From: an uncultured delta proteobacterium
Lineage (GTDB): Bacteria > Desulfobacterota > Binatia > UBA9968
DNA length: 64,000 bases
Assembly: GCA_963771465.1 (NCBI GenBank)
Contig: CAVYTU010000001.1
Location: 1 to 64,000 of the forward strand
Reading direction: 5' to 3'
A program made the position numbers and the translations under genes. The notes beneath the pieces are model-generated. The model was not told the DNA's origin. It worked only from the letters and a program-made list of their open reading frames with translations, and searched no databases. Positions 50,467-60,141 of this stretch are shown here, in pieces (position 1 is the stretch's first letter; every line of letters starts with the position of its first letter).

Positions 50467-51151
50467 ATGGCTACTGCAAGCAAAAGAATATCTAGAAAAG
50501 AACTGCGCCAACCGGATTCGTTTCAACTTGGCACAGAAAAAGCGCTTGAATTCTATAAAGGTCATCAAGCGCTAGTGATTCAGCGGTATCGCTGCGTTGA
50601 TTGTTATCCTGTTGGCGATCTGGGGTTGGCAAGTCTACAAGGACAATCAGAACGTCACCGCATCTATTGAGTTCAATAAAGCGTTGGTAGCCTACCAAGA
50701 AAACAAATATCCCGAAGCGCTTGCCGCTTTTGAAAAAGTTCAAACTTACCGATGGTCGCGTTATGCGAGTTTATCGCACTTGTACCAGGCGAATATCTAT
50801 TTGGCGACCAACGATCTCGACAAAGCGCTCAATTCGGGTCAGCGAGCCGTGACGGCGACCAAACCAAATACGATGTTTCGCCAACTCGCACTGATGGCGT
50901 TGGCAGCCGCCGAAGAGCGCAAGAATCAATGTAAGACTGCGATCGAGCATTTCAACGAAGCACAAAAGATCGCAGGACCATTACAAAGCAGCGCGATATT
51001 GGGCAAAGCTCGATGCGCGGAGCAAATTGGCGACAAAGCCGCAGCGATCGCTGCGTACAAGGACTACGTGAAAGAGAATCCCGGTTCGCCAATGGGGCTC
51101 AAGCTTACTGAGTTGGAATCGGCCAGCGTGGCTCAGCCAGCGGCTAAGTGA
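50467..51151 (+). CDS. YfgM-like membrane-anchored TPR protein; apparent frameshift near 50580
   Basis: RKELRQPDSF N-terminus in one frame; TM plus TPR-like helices in the next. Confidence 0.75.
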
Positions 51152-51297
51152 TTCCAAGGCATCATGAGGTTACGTCTGATAAGAAATATTATGTAAACTA
51201 AAAGATATACCGTGTAATTCACTCCATCAACATCCCCTCAATAATATCCGAAGCGCCCTTCTCCTCATCTCCGCGACCGTAACGGAATCACTTAACG

Positions 51298-52455
51298 CTA
51301 GAAATAGCGCCATAGCCACCATTTCTCAAAACCGATTTTAGCCCAGTAGATTAACTTTGAAGGACCCAGCGTTCTTGGGTCTGTTACTCCGAATGGCGGC
51401 CAGCCGGTCGGATAAGTCGTTCGATTTGCCGCGGCGCGTCCAGCGCCGAACGCCAGCAGTCATATGGTATGGAGCCATAGATCGACCGGCCGTCCTTTGC
51501 CGGTGATCTCGACGGCCAGATTCTGCGCCAGCACGTCGGCTTCTTGATGCGCCACGCCGCCGGCTTTTGACGCCGGCATATCGGCGCAATCGCCGATTGC
51601 GTAAACGTTGTCCCATTTGGTTTGCAACGTGTCGTAGTCAACGCGGATGCCCGTTTCCGTATCGGCGAGGCCGCTGTCGAGTAAAACCTGAGCCGGCCGA
51701 TGTGGCGGCACCATGACCAACAGATCGTAGGAAATATTGTAATTATACAAACCTTGGACGATTTTCTTTTCCGGATCGATGGCACGCACCACGAACTCAT
51801 AATTCTGCTTGATGCCGCGACGCTTGCTTTCCGCGTCCATCCACACGACCGGATCATGGGCTTCGCCAGTGGGCTCGGCCTCACGGGTAAAATACTCGAT
51901 CTCGACGCGATCGCGAATGCCTTTGTGACGGAAATAGCCGTCGAGCATCCACTGCGCCTCATAGGGCGCCGGCGGGCAGCGATAAGGACCAAGCGGTACG
52001 CCGACAACTACCCTGCCACCGCGAAAACTCGCCAGGCTGTCACGCAAGCGAACCGCTGACTCCATTTCCCAAGGATGCTGCGACGATTCGGCGAAGCCAG
52101 AAACCAAATCGGGTCGCGTCTGCAAGCCGAGAGAAACGATGAGATAGTCGTAGCTTATTTTTTCTTTTTCCAGGGCGATTTCTTGGCGCACGGGATCGAT
52201 GCCGTTGATCTCAGATTGAACTACTCTAACGTTGCGTTTTTCGAGAATTTTTAGACTGCGGCTGATATCGTGCGGCTGGCGCTCGCCGAGCATGACAAAA
52301 AGAAATGCCGGCATAAAAATATGATCAGGGCGGCGGTCGATTAGAATAACGTCATGATCGGCGCCGAGCTTGCGACCCAACTGCGTCGCGGCCACGACAC
52401 CGCCGCAGCCGCCGCCCAAAATGACGATTTTCTTGCGTCGCGATAAAAGTTGCAT
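51298..52455 (-). CDS. Sulfide:quinone oxidoreductase/FCSD-like FAD flavoprotein with in-frame UGA (probable selenocysteine 332), 385 aa
   Basis: GGGCGG Rossmann motif, YDYLIVSLG, Cys160 in PYRCPPAPYE, VPPH, NVYAIGD, PASKAG. After the TGA at 51460-51462 the frame continues LLAFGAGRA...KLIYWAKIGFEKWWLWRYF to TAG, matching the family C-terminal amphipathic helix. Confidence 0.85.
51427..51458 (-). promoter_or_regulatory. Candidate bacterial SECIS hairpin
   Basis: After UGA: c-UGCUG-gcguuc-GGCGC-uggac-GCGCC-g-CGGCA. The apical loop begins 17 nt after the UGA with G at its second position. Confidence 0.6.
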
Positions 52456-52463
52456 GTCGAAAA

Positions 52464-52664
52464 TTACGCCAGGTTTTCCTTGTCGCCGAAGCGCTGCTTT
52501 GAGCGTTGAGCCAAGCCTTGCAGGTTTCTCAATCGCTGCTCGCGCCAGAGCCTCTGTTCTTTTTTACCGTCGGCAGTGAGCTCTTTGCCGAAACCGGAGG
52601 TCGAGCGCAAAAGCCAAATCATCAGCTTGTCAGAAAGGTCTTTAATCCATTCCATAAGGTTCAT
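52464..52664 (-). CDS. Small hypothetical protein directly upstream of the SQR-like gene
   Basis: MNLMEWIKDLSDKLMIWLLR...; fills the gap between operon genes; amphipathic N-terminus. Confidence 0.45.
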   Translation of the reverse strand: MNLMEWIKDLSDKLMIWLLRSTSGFGKELTADGKKEQRLWREQRLRNLQGLAQRSKQRFGDKENLA

Positions 52665-52719
52665 CCGCACACACTTCGGCAGGTTAGAAATCTAGCGGGC
52701 ATTATTACCGATTATTAAG

Positions 52720-53688
52720 CTATCTGAGGAAAGTATCGATTTGCCTTAGCTTTTCGCTGGCATCGAGCAAACCTTGCGGGGTTGGGCCCGCTTCGCCGAT
52801 CAGTCCGACTTGACGCAGAAACTGACCGATCTGTTCATGGTCGCGCGGACTGACAGGCGTGTAAGGACGGCAGGGATTACCGATATCGACGCCGAAATGT
52901 TTCATCGCCGACTTCATCACCGGCGGCAAGCCATAGGCGCCCCACTTGCCCGGGAACAAGGCATAGCAGCGTGCCCAAAAGCGCGCCGTGTCCAGATCGC
53001 CGGCGCGAAATGCTTTGACGATCTGCGCGCCGATACGAGTGCCTGGAGGCGGCATGGTCGCACCCGATCCACCGAGCATCAACGTCACCAGCAACGGCTG
53101 CATTGTCGTGAAATAATGGCCGCGGCCAGCGAGCTCGATTTGCTCGATCAATCGCGAGATTTTCGTAATGTCCCGTGAGCTTTCCTTGAAGTAACGAATA
53201 TTATCGATCTCGCTGATCTTGACGAAGGCATCCTGCGGCGGATCGGCGCCTGGCCCGGGATTGTGATAGCAAGTAACCGGCAACGGACTCGCCGACGCCA
53301 CTTGGGTGTAGAACTCCATCAGCTCCGCGATGGTCGGTTGCCCGCCCCAGGGGCGAAGCGGCATCAGCACTTGAATAAAATCGCCGCCCACTTTCGCCGA
53401 GTAGTCGGCCAGTTCGATGACTTCGCGTGGCGCCGGGCTGGAGCAACCGAGTATCACGGGAACACGTTTGGCGATCATTTCGGTGGCGACTTTGAGAACT
53501 TCTTTGCGCTCGTCGCGCGACAGCATTGTGTATTCGGCCGCCTCGACCGCGGCGACGGTGATCGCGTCGCAGTCAGGCACGAGAAATTCAATTTCTTTTT
53601 CGAGCGCCTTGTAGTCGATCCGATCCTGTTCGTCGAAAGGCGTCAGGCATGCGCCGATGATCCCGCTGATGGGTTTGGTTGTTGCCAT
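52720..53688 (-). CDS. DHDPS/NAL-family aldolase/lyase
   Basis: GIIGACLTPF, EAAEYTMLS..ER, CYHNP, Schiff-base Lys in YFKESS. Confidence 0.85.
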   Translation of the reverse strand: MATTKPISGIIGACLTPFDEQDRIDYKALEKEIEFLVPDCDAITVAAVEAAEYTMLSRDERKEVLKVATEMIAKRVPVILGCSSPAPREVIELADYSAKVGGDFIQVLMPLRPWGGQPTIAELMEFYTQVASASPLPVTCYHNPGPGADPPQDAFVKISEIDNIRYFKESSRDITKISRLIEQIELAGRGHYFTTMQPLLVTLMLGGSGATMPPPGTRIGAQIVKAFRAGDLDTARFWARCYALFPGKWGAYGLPPVMKSAMKHFGVDIGNPCRPYTPVSPRDHEQIGQFLRQVGLIGEAGPTPQGLLDASEKLRQIDTFLR

Positions 53689-53692
53689 AACG

Positions 53693-54349
53693 CTAATTCA
53701 AAACTTCCGCGATGATGCGCGCGTGGCCGGCATCGCTGCCTTTGATGCGTAGCGGCAGCGCCATGATGCGCGTGCGTTTGCCGATGATGCTGCCGATATT
53801 GGTGACGTTCTCCGCGATCAAGACATTATTGCCGAGCAGTGTGCGATGCACCGGAAAATCAAATCCCTTGGGTCTCAGCGGCGTCGGCAGATCGACGGTG
53901 ATGCAATCGATGCCGAACATCTTGATGCCCTTCTTGACCATCCATTCGGCGGCGTCGACGGAAAGATAAGGATGCAGATTGTAATCCGGGCTATCGAACT
54001 TCTCGTCCCAGCCTGTGTGAAGCATGAGAATATCGCCGCGATTGACCTCGACCCCGGACGATTCGAAATCCTTGGCCGTCACTTCTTCGCCGCCGTTCTT
54101 CTTCACGCTGACCACCGCGCCGGTGCCGACGAAGGCGTCTATGGGCAATTCGTCGATCGATTTGCCATTGGCAACGATGTGAATCGGCGCGTCGACGTGA
54201 GTGCCGGCGTGGCACGGCAACGAGAGTTCCGTCACGTTCAGCGGATGGCCCTTTTCCAAGCTCAAAAATTTTGTTACATGAACATCCGGTAAGATCGGAA
54301 TCTTCGGCATGCCGTCATAAATCACCCTAGATAGATCGATCATTTCCAT
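53693..54349 (-). CDS. Cyclase-family metal hydrolase (kynurenine formamidase-like)
   Basis: IDLS, HAGTHVDAPIH, LHTGW, GIDC..VD, VHRTLLG, IAENV, ALPLRI.G.D. Confidence 0.92.
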   Translation of the reverse strand: MEMIDLSRVIYDGMPKIPILPDVHVTKFLSLEKGHPLNVTELSLPCHAGTHVDAPIHIVANGKSIDELPIDAFVGTGAVVSVKKNGGEEVTAKDFESSGVEVNRGDILMLHTGWDEKFDSPDYNLHPYLSVDAAEWMVKKGIKMFGIDCITVDLPTPLRPKGFDFPVHRTLLGNNVLIAENVTNIGSIIGKRTRIMALPLRIKGSDAGHARIIAEVLN

Positions 54350-54365
54350 GGCCGATTCTCCTTCG

Positions 54366-55106
54366 TCATTTTCCCCCGCGCCAGCGCGCGTAGAGAGGAT
54401 CTTTATCGACAAACGCGCGCTTGATACCGTCGAAGGCGAGCCAAAACTGATCCAACGTCTTCTGCACCGAAGCGCGCACGGCGACCTGCTGCGGTTCGCT
54501 TACTGCATAACGTTCCACAGCTAGCGGTCCAACTTTCATATGTTCTTCGTCGACACCCATATGCAAAGTCCAGTAGCGAATATCTTCAGACTCGCGATTG
54601 AAACCGTAATGCTTGGTGAGCCCATTGACGATGCGAGTCATGCGCTCGTTCGCAGTTCCTTCGAGGCAGAATCCCTGACACGCATATAGCTCCAACCAAC
54701 TGCGTTGGAACATCAACAATTCGCGCCAATCGAGAAAGGCTTGGGTCTCGGGAGTCGGCTCAACCCGATCGAGCTCTTCTTTGCTCCAGCCACCGGCTTT
54801 GGCGAAACGAATGAAAAGCTGCTTATGGCTATCGGTTCCAGTGATCTCCCCTGTCCCCTCCTCGACAACATTCTCAATCCACATCTTTTCCAACTCGGGA
54901 TCGTCAGGACAGCGCGCCAGCATCGCCGCGATCGGTTTCGGAAAGGGTTTTGGGAAGAACAAATAAAACTGTCCAATGAAACCCTTGAGCGCATCGCGAT
55001 CGAGTTTGCCTTCCTCGATCATGGCGATAATCGGATGATCCTTCGAATGCTTAGCGCGCACTATCTGCTGGATCTCTTTAATAAACTCCGTGCTCGATTT
55101 TGCCAT
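54366..55106 (-). CDS. TenA/PqqC/CADD-like heme-oxygenase-like diiron protein (HDO)
   Basis: HP, EGKL, ENVVEEG...SHKQLF, LE, YWTLHMGVDEEH: the E/H/E/H-x3-D-x2-H ligand set typical of CADD-like proteins. Confidence 0.82.
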   Translation of the reverse strand: MAKSSTEFIKEIQQIVRAKHSKDHPIIAMIEEGKLDRDALKGFIGQFYLFFPKPFPKPIAAMLARCPDDPELEKMWIENVVEEGTGEITGTDSHKQLFIRFAKAGGWSKEELDRVEPTPETQAFLDWRELLMFQRSWLELYACQGFCLEGTANERMTRIVNGLTKHYGFNRESEDIRYWTLHMGVDEEHMKVGPLAVERYAVSEPQQVAVRASVQKTLDQFWLAFDGIKRAFVDKDPLYARWRGGK

Positions 55107-56896: not shown

Positions 56897-58531
56897 TTAG
56901 TCGATGACGATCCGATTACGTACTTCCTTGACGCCGGGAACGCTCAGCGCGGCGCGCACCGCGGCCAACTTCTGGCGCGGCGAGGCTACCCGGCCTTCAA
57001 GATATACCAAACCATCATCGACCCGGGACACTTGCACACCGAGAATGGCGCGATCGTGAATTGCCTTGTAAATTTCAAGTTCCAATCGTTGTTCTAACAC
57101 GGCGGCATCGCCCGATGATCGCACCGGCGTAGATGATTTTATGATTGCGCGTTTGTTGGCCGCGACTTGGGACGACGACTTCGCTGGCGTCTCGACTTTT
57201 CGATCGCTCCCTGGTGTGGCTGTGCCGTCGTGGCCCAAAACAACGTCGGAGTCTGCATGGTTGTTCAAGCTTTCCGTAAGCGGCGCTGTCTCGGGCGAAA
57301 TTTCTGTTGGATTCGGTGTCAGCGCCTGTGCCGGTCGCGCGCTTCCATTGGCACGGCCGAAGCCCGTCCAATGTTCAAAGTAAGCACTGATGGCCGGTAG
57401 CGACAACAACTTTTCCTGCACAGCGAAGAACAGCAACGTGCCGATCAGCAGAGACAAGACGAAAATACTGGCATAATTCCGCGTATGCACGGCGCGACGT
57501 TTGCGGGAGTGAGCAGAGCGGTAACCCATGTCCATCACCAACGGTTCGAACTGCGGTGCCGTGTCGATTGCGCTCGGCGGCCTTTCCCAAACCGGGCGAA
57601 ACTCCTGCGCGCGAGCCCCCTGGGTCGCTGAGCCAACTTCGGCAGCAACCGGCACTTCGGAAATATCGACGAGTTGCAGTTCTTGCGCCGCCTCAACGAT
57701 GTCGTCCACCGACACCCAGCGGCGTCCAGCGGCGCAGGCGATCAACAACGCATTATCGCAGATAACGTTGACAAGCCGAGGTATCCCTTTCGAATAGCGC
57801 GCAATCCGTTTGACGCACTCGCTGTCGAATAAGTCGCGGCGCGTGTACTTAACCGTCTTCAATCGCGAAGCGATGTATAAACCGACGTCGCTTTCCTCCA
57901 AGGGGCGGATTCGGCAGCGCAGCGCCACCCGCTGTTTAAGCTGGACTAGTTCGGGACGATCCAATTTTTCCACCAAACCCGGCTGACCGACTAGAATAAT
58001 TTGGATCAGCTTTTCGGTATCGGTTTCGAGGTTAGAAAGCAGCCGCAACTCTTCGAGCATCGTGATGCTCATGCTTTGGGCTTCGTCGACCATGAGGGTG
58101 ACGATGTGACCTTTTTCGAGCTGCTCGATCAGAAAATCATACAACTGCATCATCATGGACAACCGGTCACCGTCGGCTACGGGAGTCATACCCAAATCGC
58201 GCAACACGCCACGCAAAAGCTCGAGGAAGCTAAGATGTGGATCAAATACGCAGGCGCTGTGAACATGGGTTTCGAGGCTATTGATCAGCCGTTTCAAAAC
58301 CGTCGTTTTGCCGGTACCCGCTTCACCAGTGACGACAATAAAACCTTTGCGCGCGTCGATTCCATAACGCACCGTGGCGAAGGCTTCTTCATAACACGAG
58401 TTGACGAAGAAAAATCGCGAATCCGGAGTGACATTGAATGGTGATTCGCTAAATCCGAAGTGTTCGTTGTACATATGACTTAAGGATATTGATTTTGGTT
58501 TATAGTTTTCAGTTTCAGTCGAGCTGCTCAT
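56897..58531 (-). CDS. ExeA/GspA-like AAA ATPase with TM and C-terminal BON domain
   Basis: HFGFSESPFNVTPD..FFF, GEAGTGKTT, VDEAQ, ILVGQP, GIPRLVNVICDNALL; tail VYLEGRV...AALSVPGVKEVRNRI. Confidence 0.88.
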   Translation of the reverse strand: MSSSTETENYKPKSISLSHMYNEHFGFSESPFNVTPDSRFFFVNSCYEEAFATVRYGIDARKGFIVVTGEAGTGKTTVLKRLINSLETHVHSACVFDPHLSFLELLRGVLRDLGMTPVADGDRLSMMMQLYDFLIEQLEKGHIVTLMVDEAQSMSITMLEELRLLSNLETDTEKLIQIILVGQPGLVEKLDRPELVQLKQRVALRCRIRPLEESDVGLYIASRLKTVKYTRRDLFDSECVKRIARYSKGIPRLVNVICDNALLIACAAGRRWVSVDDIVEAAQELQLVDISEVPVAAEVGSATQGARAQEFRPVWERPPSAIDTAPQFEPLVMDMGYRSAHSRKRRAVHTRNYASIFVLSLLIGTLLFFAVQEKLLSLPAISAYFEHWTGFGRANGSARPAQALTPNPTEISPETAPLTESLNNHADSDVVLGHDGTATPGSDRKVETPAKSSSQVAANKRAIIKSSTPVRSSGDAAVLEQRLELEIYKAIHDRAILGVQVSRVDDGLVYLEGRVASPRQKLAAVRAALSVPGVKEVRNRIVID

Positions 58532-60141
58532 TACTTAAGCCGTTCAAAAAACGCATCTTCTTTATGGACGTAGCCCTCGGCGATTCCCCTCTCCCGCGAT
58601 CGTATCAGCATATAATCGCCGCGCCGCTCGACCAATTGAATACGTGTGCCGGCGTGCAGGGTCGTGACGATATCGGCTTCCGATGTCGGTTGTTTGCGCA
58701 CGAAGGAATCGTCAACGACCAGGTAATCGATAAGTGCCCGATTGGCGGATGCGGTATTCACCCGCTCGTTATCGCCGTGCCGGACATTTTTTGAGCGGGT
58801 CTGGGGCGTCACGAGATCTGGTGTGGACGAAAAGTCGGAACTGGCAATGCTGTCGCGCTCACGAGTCATCGGCAGGCGACTTTGGTTTGCCGGAACTGGC
58901 GCGGGCGTTTGTCGCCGTGGCACGGGAATCTCGATCCTTACATCATCGGCGCTTTCTTCGCGCGCTATGAACACCCGGTAAATCCGCCCCGGAAGCGGCG
59001 CAATCACTTGTGTCACCCTGGTAAGATTAGCGCTCATCGGTTCAAATGAATCAGGCCTCTGCTGTGTCGCGATCACCCCGGCGATGATCAATGCAAGTAT
59101 GGCGAATCCTAATATCAGCCCTGCCCTTTTGCTCTCGGGGGGGCCGGATAGCTCGGGACGTGCCTGTGGAACAATCGGCGGCACGGTCGTGATATCCGAC
59201 CGCGAAAACTCCTCGGCTCGATCATCGGCCATTTCATCAATGACCGTTAGTACGCGATTGTCCACCGGAACGGCCGCGCTCCGTGCCCCCGGCAGCGTCG
59301 GCTCTTTCAGCGCCCAAGGCATCCTATGAGCTGGCAATACGGCAAGTTGTAAATCCTCTGCGACTTCGTCGATAGTTTCGACTCCAACGTGGCGCTGCGA
59401 CGTGGCGCATGCGATCAGCAGAGCGTTATCGCAAATAACATTGATCAGCCGAGGAATGCCAGATGAAAATGCCGTGATCCGTTTGATCGCCGGCGTTCTA
59501 AAAATCGTCTCCCCGCTGTATCCTGCCACCCGCAACCGGTATTCGATATAAGAACGAATCTCTTCACTCTCCAGCGCCCGTAGCTTGGAGCGCAGCGTCA
59601 CGCGTTGCCTGAGATCAAACGACGGCGTTGATAATCGCGTGTCGAGGAGCGGCTGACCGACCAACACGACCTGCAAAAGCCGCTCGTCGTTCTTTTGGAG
59701 ATCCGAAAGCAGCCCTAGTTCATCGAGCATCGCATCGTCGAGATCCTGGGCTTCGTCGAGTAGCAGCGTGACGATGCAGTTCTGTTCGTGTTGATTGACG
59801 AGATAGCTGTTAAGTTCCTGCACCATCGTCACGCGATCGGGAGAGCACGGTGACAAACCAAAGGCGCCCAAGGCGCACTGCAACAATTCACCAAAAGTCA
59901 CATGGGGGTCGAGAATGCACGCTGTATGCACACGACTGGGAGAGTTCTGAATGAAACGCTTGAGCAGCGTGGTTTTACCGGTACCGGCTTCGCCTGTGAT
60001 GACGATTATCCCCTTGCGCTGCTCGATACCGTGGCAGAGCGTCGCGAATGCCTCCTGAAGCGACGCGTTGAGGAAAAAAAATCGCGGGTCAGGAGTCAGA
60101 TTGAAAGGCGATTCGCGTAGATTGAAATAGTCCTCGTACAT
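58531..60141 (-). CDS. ExeA/GspA-like AAA ATPase with TM and C-terminal SH3-like domain
   Basis: YFNLRESPFNLTPDPRFFF, GEAGTGKTT, LDEAQ, GIPRLINVICDNALL; tail VRKQPT...LHAGTRI...GYV. Confidence 0.88.
   Translation of the reverse strand: MYEDYFNLRESPFNLTPDPRFFFLNASLQEAFATLCHGIEQRKGIIVITGEAGTGKTTLLKRFIQNSPSRVHTACILDPHVTFGELLQCALGAFGLSPCSPDRVTMVQELNSYLVNQHEQNCIVTLLLDEAQDLDDAMLDELGLLSDLQKNDERLLQVVLVGQPLLDTRLSTPSFDLRQRVTLRSKLRALESEEIRSYIEYRLRVAGYSGETIFRTPAIKRITAFSSGIPRLINVICDNALLIACATSQRHVGVETIDEVAEDLQLAVLPAHRMPWALKEPTLPGARSAAVPVDNRVLTVIDEMADDRAEEFSRSDITTVPPIVPQARPELSGPPESKRAGLILGFAILALIIAGVIATQQRPDSFEPMSANLTRVTQVIAPLPGRIYRVFIAREESADDVRIEIPVPRRQTPAPVPANQSRLPMTRERDSIASSDFSSTPDLVTPQTRSKNVRHGDNERVNTASANRALIDYLVVDDSFVRKQPTSEADIVTTLHAGTRIQLVERRGDYMLIRSRERGIAEGYVHKEDAFFERLK

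Follow-up and report, generated by a model that had tools for sequence, protein, structure and literature searches.

A predicted selenocysteine-containing flavoprotein of the sulfide:quinone oxidoreductase family in Binatia-type soil bacteria

The sulfide:quinone oxidoreductase (SQR) of human mitochondria, SQOR, is a relative of the protein described here in which roles have been assigned to the two redox cysteines. In the available text of one study (PMC11039317), sulfide opens a Cys379-S-S-S-Cys201 trisulfide and the Cys201 persulfide engages the flavin adenine dinucleotide (FAD), an acceptor takes the sulfane sulfur from Cys379-SSH, and the Cys379 thiolate attacks the flavin adduct, whereupon the trisulfide forms again. 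Selenocysteine (Sec) has been predicted in flavoproteins of this type. In the accessible part of its publication, deep-Sep predicts an NAD(P)/FAD-dependent oxidoreductase selenoprotein in Desulfosediminicola (Xiao & Zhang 2025; PMC12013277), a table in the accessible part of a 2026 review (PMC13188914) gives that family the motif HxxU and credits deep-Sep, and NCBIfam holds a model, NF049943 (SQR_III_seleno), for the "type III SQR, selenoprotein subtype". Here we analyze a gene on the minus strand of a 64,000-nucleotide stretch of DNA (hereafter the window; positions 1 to 64,000 of contig CAVYTU010000001.1, assembly GCA_963771465.1) from an uncultured delta proteobacterium of the Binatia. The gene is very probably a genuine selenoprotein gene, coding for a 385-residue FAD-dependent flavoprotein of the SQR family in which the second catalytic cysteine is replaced by Sec (U332). 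A preliminary description of this DNA had not counted it among the well-characterised selenoprotein families and had left its novelty undecided; a Sec-containing SQR-type flavoprotein is of the kind already predicted in 2025 and modelled as NF049943, and the clade to which the window protein belongs is a separate lineage.

As the preliminary description had read it, exactly, the open reading frame runs from ATG 52455 to TGA 51462-51460, where it halts after 331 codons (...DLWLHTI), and the frame then stays open for 53 further codons (LLAFGAGRAAANRTTYPTGWPPFGVTDPRTLGPSKLIYWAKIGFEKWWLWRYF) up to the TAG at 51300-51298. The same description had expected gene callers to cut the protein short at this point, and 118 of the best 120 protein-database matches are indeed truncations of 331 residues, filed under names such as "sulfide:quinone oxidoreductase" or "FAD/NAD(P)-binding oxidoreductase".

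The in-frame TGA is a fixed trait of this gene among its close relatives. Orthologs were sought in 60 related genomes and in the source genome itself, and 53 of these 61 genomes, from three families of one order, gave a match at E <= 1e-40. Each of the 49 matches that reach query residue 385 holds one internal TGA (one of them also has an extra TAG), and the four stop-free matches all end before residue 326. Of the 46 loci excised, one (L030) stops short of the C-terminus, leaving 45 orthologous loci at 68-92% identity; LHTI-TGA-LL is found in 45 of 45, and their terminal stop is TAA in 11, TAG in 16 and TGA in 18. Two wider scans gave a similar result. Among the best 80 of 215 relatives on genome contigs, a set that partly overlaps the 45 loci, 79 carry the TGA and the remaining one (L120) ends before the site, and among the best 80 of 250 relatives in a metagenome scan seeded with a Cys-containing orthologue (P0105) the TGA is present in all 80. 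Neither TGC nor TGT occurs at codon 332 in any of the ortholog, genome-contig or metagenome DNA examined. Moreover, DNA contigs of two soil sequencing runs (X1 and X2) span the codon, and positions 51460-51462 are unchanged among the 40 differences listed for them (35 more being unlisted).

The codons that follow the UGA are under purifying selection. The median ratio of nonsynonymous to synonymous substitution (dN/dS; pairwise Nei-Gojobori estimates over the 45 sequences) is 0.084 for codons 333-385 (907 of 990 pairs usable) and 0.104 for codons 1-331 (754 pairs usable), figures to be read with the saturation of dS in many pairs in mind. In particular, the downstream residues are near-invariant and their codons are free to vary, with G364, P365 and L381 each using four codons. 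Immediately 5' of the UGA, the codon for Ile331 (51463-51465) is ATA in all 45 Binatia-type orthologues, with zero entropy, and the loci labelled Acidobacteriota have TTG or CTA (Leu) before the UGA; the fixed ATA331 could reflect a context effect on recoding or on termination.

A second mark of recoding lies 3' of the codon. The preliminary description had placed a GC-rich hairpin directly after the UGA, upon a lower stem UGCUG/CGGCA. The hairpin exists and is conserved, although it starts 11 nt after the UGA rather than directly behind it, and its conserved stem has 6 bp. The lower stem can pair in the window but is not conserved: for 44 distinct sequences, aligned over a region that begins 3 nt ahead of the UGA and extends 57 nt past it, RNAalifold keeps the upper hairpin as the single consensus helix (columns 18-23/29-34, loop NGGNC). 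The available text of the 2026 review (PMC13188914) describes a bacterial selenocysteine insertion sequence (bSECIS) by an apical loop of 3-9 nt with a G within its first two positions, an upper stem of 4-16 bp, a UGA-to-loop distance of 16-37 nt and a minimum free energy of -7.5 kcal/mol or lower. The hairpin in the window agrees with this model in all four respects, with a 5-nt loop that has G at position 2 followed by a second G, a 6-bp stem, 17 nt from UGA to loop and -10.6 kcal/mol; across the 44 sequences the energy ranges from -8.4 to -11.9 kcal/mol. The stem also leaves its mark on synonymous codon choice. Among 92 codons for invariant residues of four-fold or higher degeneracy, the three with the lowest codon entropy, R340 (CGC in 45/45), G337 (GGC in 44/45) and A341 (GCC in 43/45), are exactly the codons of the stem, and the codons of the loop (A338 and G339) and of the flanking A342 and A343 vary. 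The Cys-containing orthologue P0105 (385 residues, 71% identity) reads HTIC-LLAFEPGKAA, so that EPGK replaces the GAGR residues by which Sec forms encode the hairpin. The hairpin would thus appear to be lost in this Cys form, as judged from its amino acids because its DNA was not recovered: the metagenome scan seeded with P0105 returned only TGA forms, at 70-76% identity.

The source genome (6.9 Mb in 19 contigs) has the apparatus for Sec insertion. A single cluster on one contig (C14, 197319-201637) holds selA (614 bits), selB (359 bits) and selD (376 bits), all above their cut-offs, and a tRNA-SeC with anticodon tca is found on another contig (C13). The selD match itself holds one in-frame TGA, so that the SelD of this genome is probably Sec-containing too.

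The placement of the protein in the SQR family relies on several lines of evidence. Pfam assigns Pyr_redox_2 (PF07992; 68 bits, residues 9-151) and FCSD_central (PF21706; 33 bits), and in the dinucleotide-binding motif G14 and G19 are invariant, and G16 and G18 nearly so, in alignment A3. The best sequence matches among solved structures are human SQOR (E 2.5e-35), the SQR of A. ambivalens, the flavoproteins of flavocytochrome c sulfide dehydrogenase (FCSD) and the SQR of A. aeolicus. When the protein is aligned with human SQOR, C160 (in RCPPAP) lies opposite the Cys in VKCAGAP, and U332 lies opposite that in YTSCPL; these human residues stand at chain positions 161 and 339, which an offset of 40 turns into Cys201 and Cys379. 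Hence the assignment of Cys160 (codon 51978-51976) as first and of the UGA as second redox position, and with it the Cys/Sec pair in an SQR-like flavoprotein that the preliminary description had put forward, is borne out. A family alignment of 132 rows combines the query and P0105 with 130 representatives that are 300 residues or longer. Its U332 column, in which the query was read as C, has Cys in 108 rows; five rows end exactly there (P0122, P0158, P0163, P0185 and P0224), and the remaining 19 have another residue or a gap, or are short. C160 is invariant in alignment A3 and is Cys in 120 of the 132 rows.

An AlphaFold2 model, built on a 29-row alignment, is of high confidence (mean pLDDT 93.3, pTM 0.92) and places U332 in the middle of a strand (328-335) that is followed by strands 341-348 and 358-366 and by helix 367-384; with strands and helix modelled there, the part after the UGA is integral to the modelled fold. 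The predicted and conserved helix includes F376 within the C-terminal FEKWW and, by analogy with SQRs, may serve as an amphipathic membrane anchor. The 22 top PDB fold matches listed are all SQR or FCSD (TMq 0.82-0.86), with TMq values of 0.85 for A. aeolicus SQR, 0.82-0.85 for human SQOR, 0.84-0.86 for A. ferrooxidans SQR and 0.82-0.86 for FCSD; NDH-2 matches less well (about 0.75). With bacterial type I SQRs (such as Aquifex aeolicus 3hyv and Acidithiobacillus ferrooxidans 3t31) and the FCSD flavoprotein (1fcd, 3vrd, 5n1t) the protein has in common this fold, the FCSD_central match and two equivalent redox positions, whereas identity to them is 20-25% and the second redox position is followed by Leu instead of Phe. 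The fold of human mitochondrial SQOR, a type II enzyme (PDB 6oi5, 6oi6, 8dhk), and its two redox positions are likewise matched; it differs by an identity of about 25%, by Cys in place of Sec at 379 and by its eukaryotic mitochondrial setting, and its trisulfide can only be presumed for the window protein. No match to a cytochrome c family was found in the eight neighbouring open reading frames scanned, and this lack of an adjacent cytochrome c subunit gene argues against an FCSD. Finally, the accessible part of the review table includes another enzyme, of the pyridine-nucleotide-disulfide-oxidoreductase fold, in which Sec replaces a redox Cys; the fold class is common to both, but the family is not, for the window protein matches TIGR03385 weakly (38.6 bits) and the position and motif of the Sec differ.

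Several observations weigh against the picture of a Sec-containing SQR drawn so far. Selenium insertion at U332 and the full-length product are predictions from sequence. Contigs from RNA libraries cover 51200-51416 and 51613-52067 (X15) and 51527-51774 (X16), none of them bridges the UGA, and such contigs do not prove transcription. Within the hairpin, compensatory double changes are seen at none of the six pairs in the 44 sequences, in which the five single-sided stem changes are all G-U compatible; pair 18-34 is broken in one of these sequences, and in a metagenome locus, L146, the stem contains a G-A mismatch. The 63-nt region folds no better than its shuffles (z 0.84), and the signal of the hairpin is therefore one of conservation and not of raw stability. 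An Rfam scan of 51100-52800 at E <= 1 matched no family. As regards the reaction, the available text of PMC9666304 describes, for the SQRs of A. ferrooxidans and C. maquilingensis, a Phe of the quinone site directly behind the second redox Cys, and Leu333 stands at that position here; no gene for sulfur transfer or persulfide dioxygenase occurs among the conserved neighbours.

These last two points bear on the most durable of the alternatives, namely that a Sec-containing protein with the SQR fold carries out another reaction, on persulfide, polysulfide, CoA-persulfide, selenide or another thiol substrate. We consider this unlikely, and yet keep it as a serious minority view because Leu333 replaces Phe and the genomic context is silent. 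Identity to characterised SQRs is 21-26%, the conserved neighbourhood lacks sulfur-oxidation genes, and the fold is found in NDH-2 and CoA-persulfide reductase as well (TMq 0.66-0.77), but both SQR redox positions are retained, SQRs and FCSDs make up all the top matches in sequence and in fold, the protein has a conserved C-terminal helix of the type usual in monotopic SQRs, and the curated family closest to it bears the name type III SQR. A selenide substrate has some precedent in PDB entry 3sz0, the A. ferrooxidans SQR complexed with sodium selenide, and in a preprint that, in its available part, reports hydrogen selenide oxidation by SQOR.

Much less probable is that the UGA is read as another amino acid, be it through a change of code (TGA as Trp or Gly) or through near-cognate readthrough, with no Sec involved. 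A reassigned codon would also yield a conserved in-frame TGA and a conserved downstream frame; nevertheless, a lineage-wide reassignment is unlikely because TGA terminates the same gene in 18 of the 45 orthologues, and homologues have Cys rather than Trp or Gly at this column, a SECIS-like hairpin under synonymous constraint lies 3' of the codon, and the genome encodes a complete sel set with tRNA-Sec. That the TGA is a real stop, arisen by nonsense mutation or sequencing error, with a 331-residue product and an accidental or decaying frame downstream, is scarcely credible: gene calls and databases (118 of the best 120 matches) do give 331 residues and the longer product is known from sequence, but no intact orthologue examined lacks the TGA (45/45, 79/80 and 80/80, with three families of a single order represented), dN/dS after the codon is 0.084, a 331-residue form would, on the model, miss three strands and the C-terminal helix, and the soil-run DNA contigs that span the codon show no difference there among those listed.

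With the selenoprotein reading retained, the relation of the window clade to NF049943 can be considered. The window protein scores 265.5 bits against this model (259.3 bits when searched on the genome) and does not reach its cut-off of 525 bits. In a 401-genome sample of the phylum to which the window belongs, 22 genomes hold 25 matches above the cut-off (596-680 bits), of which nine have one TGA and 16 have none. The Sec-containing members L232 and L234-L237 carry the TGA in DGHAT-U-MVVTGYEKGS, in the same column as U332. The Sec column and the His at -3 (HxxU) are thus common to both groups, the window protein reading WLHTI-U-LLA; both have Cys-containing paralogues or orthologues, and both are, in the sources available, known from prediction only. 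Three genomes (G360, G433 and G332) each have a Cys paralogue and a Sec paralogue with one TGA above the cut-off. The two groups differ in their C-termini, in host (Binatia-type genomes for the window clade), in sequence, the window protein being about 33% identical to the member P0158, and in the recoding hairpin: that of NF049943 has an 8-bp stem (CGAGAAGG/CCUUCUCG) with a GGUC loop and starts 17 nt after the UGA, unlike the 6-bp GC stem that starts at 11 nt here. P0158 reaches the cut-off in spite of its truncation (525.3 bits), and the nine other representatives scanned do not. The label of type III SQR, for its part, is borrowed solely from what NF049943 is called. In the source genome, two more distant SQR/NDH-2-like matches without internal stops (C11:214843-215880 and C13:222417-222800) score 125 and 46 bits against the same model.

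Sequence space around the window clade is sparsely filled. In a set of 1.84 billion cluster representatives, members of the clade are at least 57% identical to the window protein and the next full-length relatives 31-39%, and 250 genomes of the phylum from outside its own order gave only four matches at E <= 1e-60, with 38-39% identity and no stop. A quick maximum-likelihood tree was computed from the first 331 query positions of 86 rows, consisting of the first 85 Cys or Sec rows in the order of the list and one later truncated row, and omitting 27 lower-scoring Cys rows and the 19 rows with neither Cys nor Sec. The window clade (query, P0105 and P0122; support 100) is parted in it from P0158 by a branch with SH-aLRT 99, Cys forms lie on both sides of that branch, and the well-supported branches require at least five changes of the Sec label, which for P0122, P0163, P0185 and P0224 is assigned from truncation at the column only. 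Given that the hairpins differ, the split is deep and Cys forms are interspersed, an independent replacement of Cys by Sec is favoured, and the window clade is probably, to judge from these sequences, a second Sec lineage that arose independently of NF049943. Going further, one may tentatively propose, as an idea with somewhat less than an even footing, that the persulfide-carrying Cys of SQR-type flavoproteins is a recurrent hot spot of Cys-to-Sec replacement, with the Binatia-type clade and NF049943 as independent instances that have their own SECIS each. Additional Sec lineages may be represented by the clusters P0163, P0185 and P0224, which are scattered over the tree and break off just where the second redox Cys would align.

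In the literature we found no report that links Binatia or Binatota with selenocysteine or selenoproteins, the deep-Sep supplements, which may list homologues from other taxa, lying outside the search; nor did we find one that combines selenocysteine, SQR, UGA and sulfide oxidation.

The named relatives are mostly metagenome-assembled genomes called "Candidatus Binatia bacterium", with Deltaproteobacteria and Syntrophobacter as older labels, and a few are labelled Acidobacteriota and read HTL-U-LL. The sequencing runs that hold the stretch are recorded as metagenomes of soil, rhizosphere and sediment. Upstream of the SQR-like gene, across a gap of 264 nt, lies a DHDPS-family gene, followed by a putative cyclase-family gene and a Haem_oxygenas_2/TenA-like gene (Table 1), and this arrangement, well kept across the loci checked, may be due to mere common descent. 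Downstream, on the opposite strand, are genes for a TPR protein, a protein with a bifunctional-nuclease domain and a MiaB-like protein. No gene on either side suggests a role in sulfur metabolism. A scan for promoters and terminators gave three promoter-like sites against 1.3 expected, none of them convincing. Farther off, the minus strand of 56897-60141 carries two adjacent genes with AAA_22 ATPase domains, one with a C-terminal BON domain and the other with a bacterial SH3 domain.

Table 1. Positions of the selenoprotein gene, its elements and its conserved upstream neighbours in the window
Feature	Position	Strand	Remarks
Full selenoprotein coding sequence	51298..52455	-	385 codons and TAG stop; translated with TGA as U; predicted FAD flavoprotein of the SQR family
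Sec codon UGA (codon 332)	51460..51462	-	At the second redox Cys position
Coding segment after the UGA, codons 333-385	51301..51459	-	Three beta strands and C-terminal helix (model)
SECIS-like hairpin CGGCGC-UGGAC-GCGCCG	51432..51448	-	6-bp stem 51448-51443/51437-51432; loop 51442-51438 with invariant GG
Cys160 codon, first redox Cys, in RCPPAPYE	51976..51978	-	
FAD dinucleotide-binding motif GGGCGG, residues 14-19	52399..52416	-	
C-terminal helix, residues 367-384, IYWAKIGFEKWWLWRY	51304..51357	-	Helix in AlphaFold2 model; strongly conserved
DHDPS-family gene, upstream	52720-53688	-	Adjacent in 36/36 loci checked
Cyclase-family gene (putative, PF04199), upstream	53693-54412	-	Present in 33/36 loci
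Haem_oxygenas_2/TenA-like gene, iron-enzyme type, upstream	54366-55106	-	Present in 34/36 loci

Taken as a selenoprotein, the window protein could work as follows. SelB and Sec-tRNA(Sec) would bind the GC-rich hairpin with its GG apical loop, and UGA 51462-51460 would be recoded as Sec. By analogy with human SQOR, Cys160 and Sec332 would flank the flavin, and the bridging sulfane sulfur would take the form of a mixed Se-S(-S) species. Sulfide would open this bridge; from the Cys160 side electrons would pass to FAD and on to the membrane quinone, and the residue-332 side would hold the outgoing sulfane sulfur, give it to an acceptor and attack the flavin adduct anew. A selenolate has a lower pKa than a thiolate, attacks more readily as a nucleophile and also departs more easily as a leaving group, for which reason Sec332 should speed the steps of hand-off and renewed attack. 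The influence of Sec on sulfide/polysulfide or selenide chemistry that the preliminary description had suggested is speculative. Sulfide as substrate, quinone as acceptor and a kinetic benefit of Sec are all suggested by analogy with characterised enzymes.

The finding opens no new category and, for specialists in selenoproteomes, it is an expected extension of the 2025 prediction. Public databases nonetheless store a truncation of 331 residues for a protein whose TGA is carried by every intact orthologue examined in an abundant soil lineage, and annotation pipelines that depend on NF049943, the single curated selenoprotein model of this kind, are not expected to repair these entries because the model does not reach the window clade. 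Two lineages with Sec at the same position and different SECIS would make a compact case of convergent recoding. No characterised Sec-containing SQR was found in the literature as far as its text was available. Since the Sec takes the place of the residue by which human SQOR holds and transfers its sulfane sulfur, a natural comparison of U and C for the trisulfide mechanism becomes possible, and P0105 could serve as its Cys side. If the bridge is indeed a mixed seleno-(tri)sulfide, the SQR mechanism would have natural Se-S variants in these proteins, and the fact that one such variant is fixed in a whole order of soil bacteria would suggest a selective advantage, for instance in scavenging low sulfide or in resisting over-oxidation in oxic soils.

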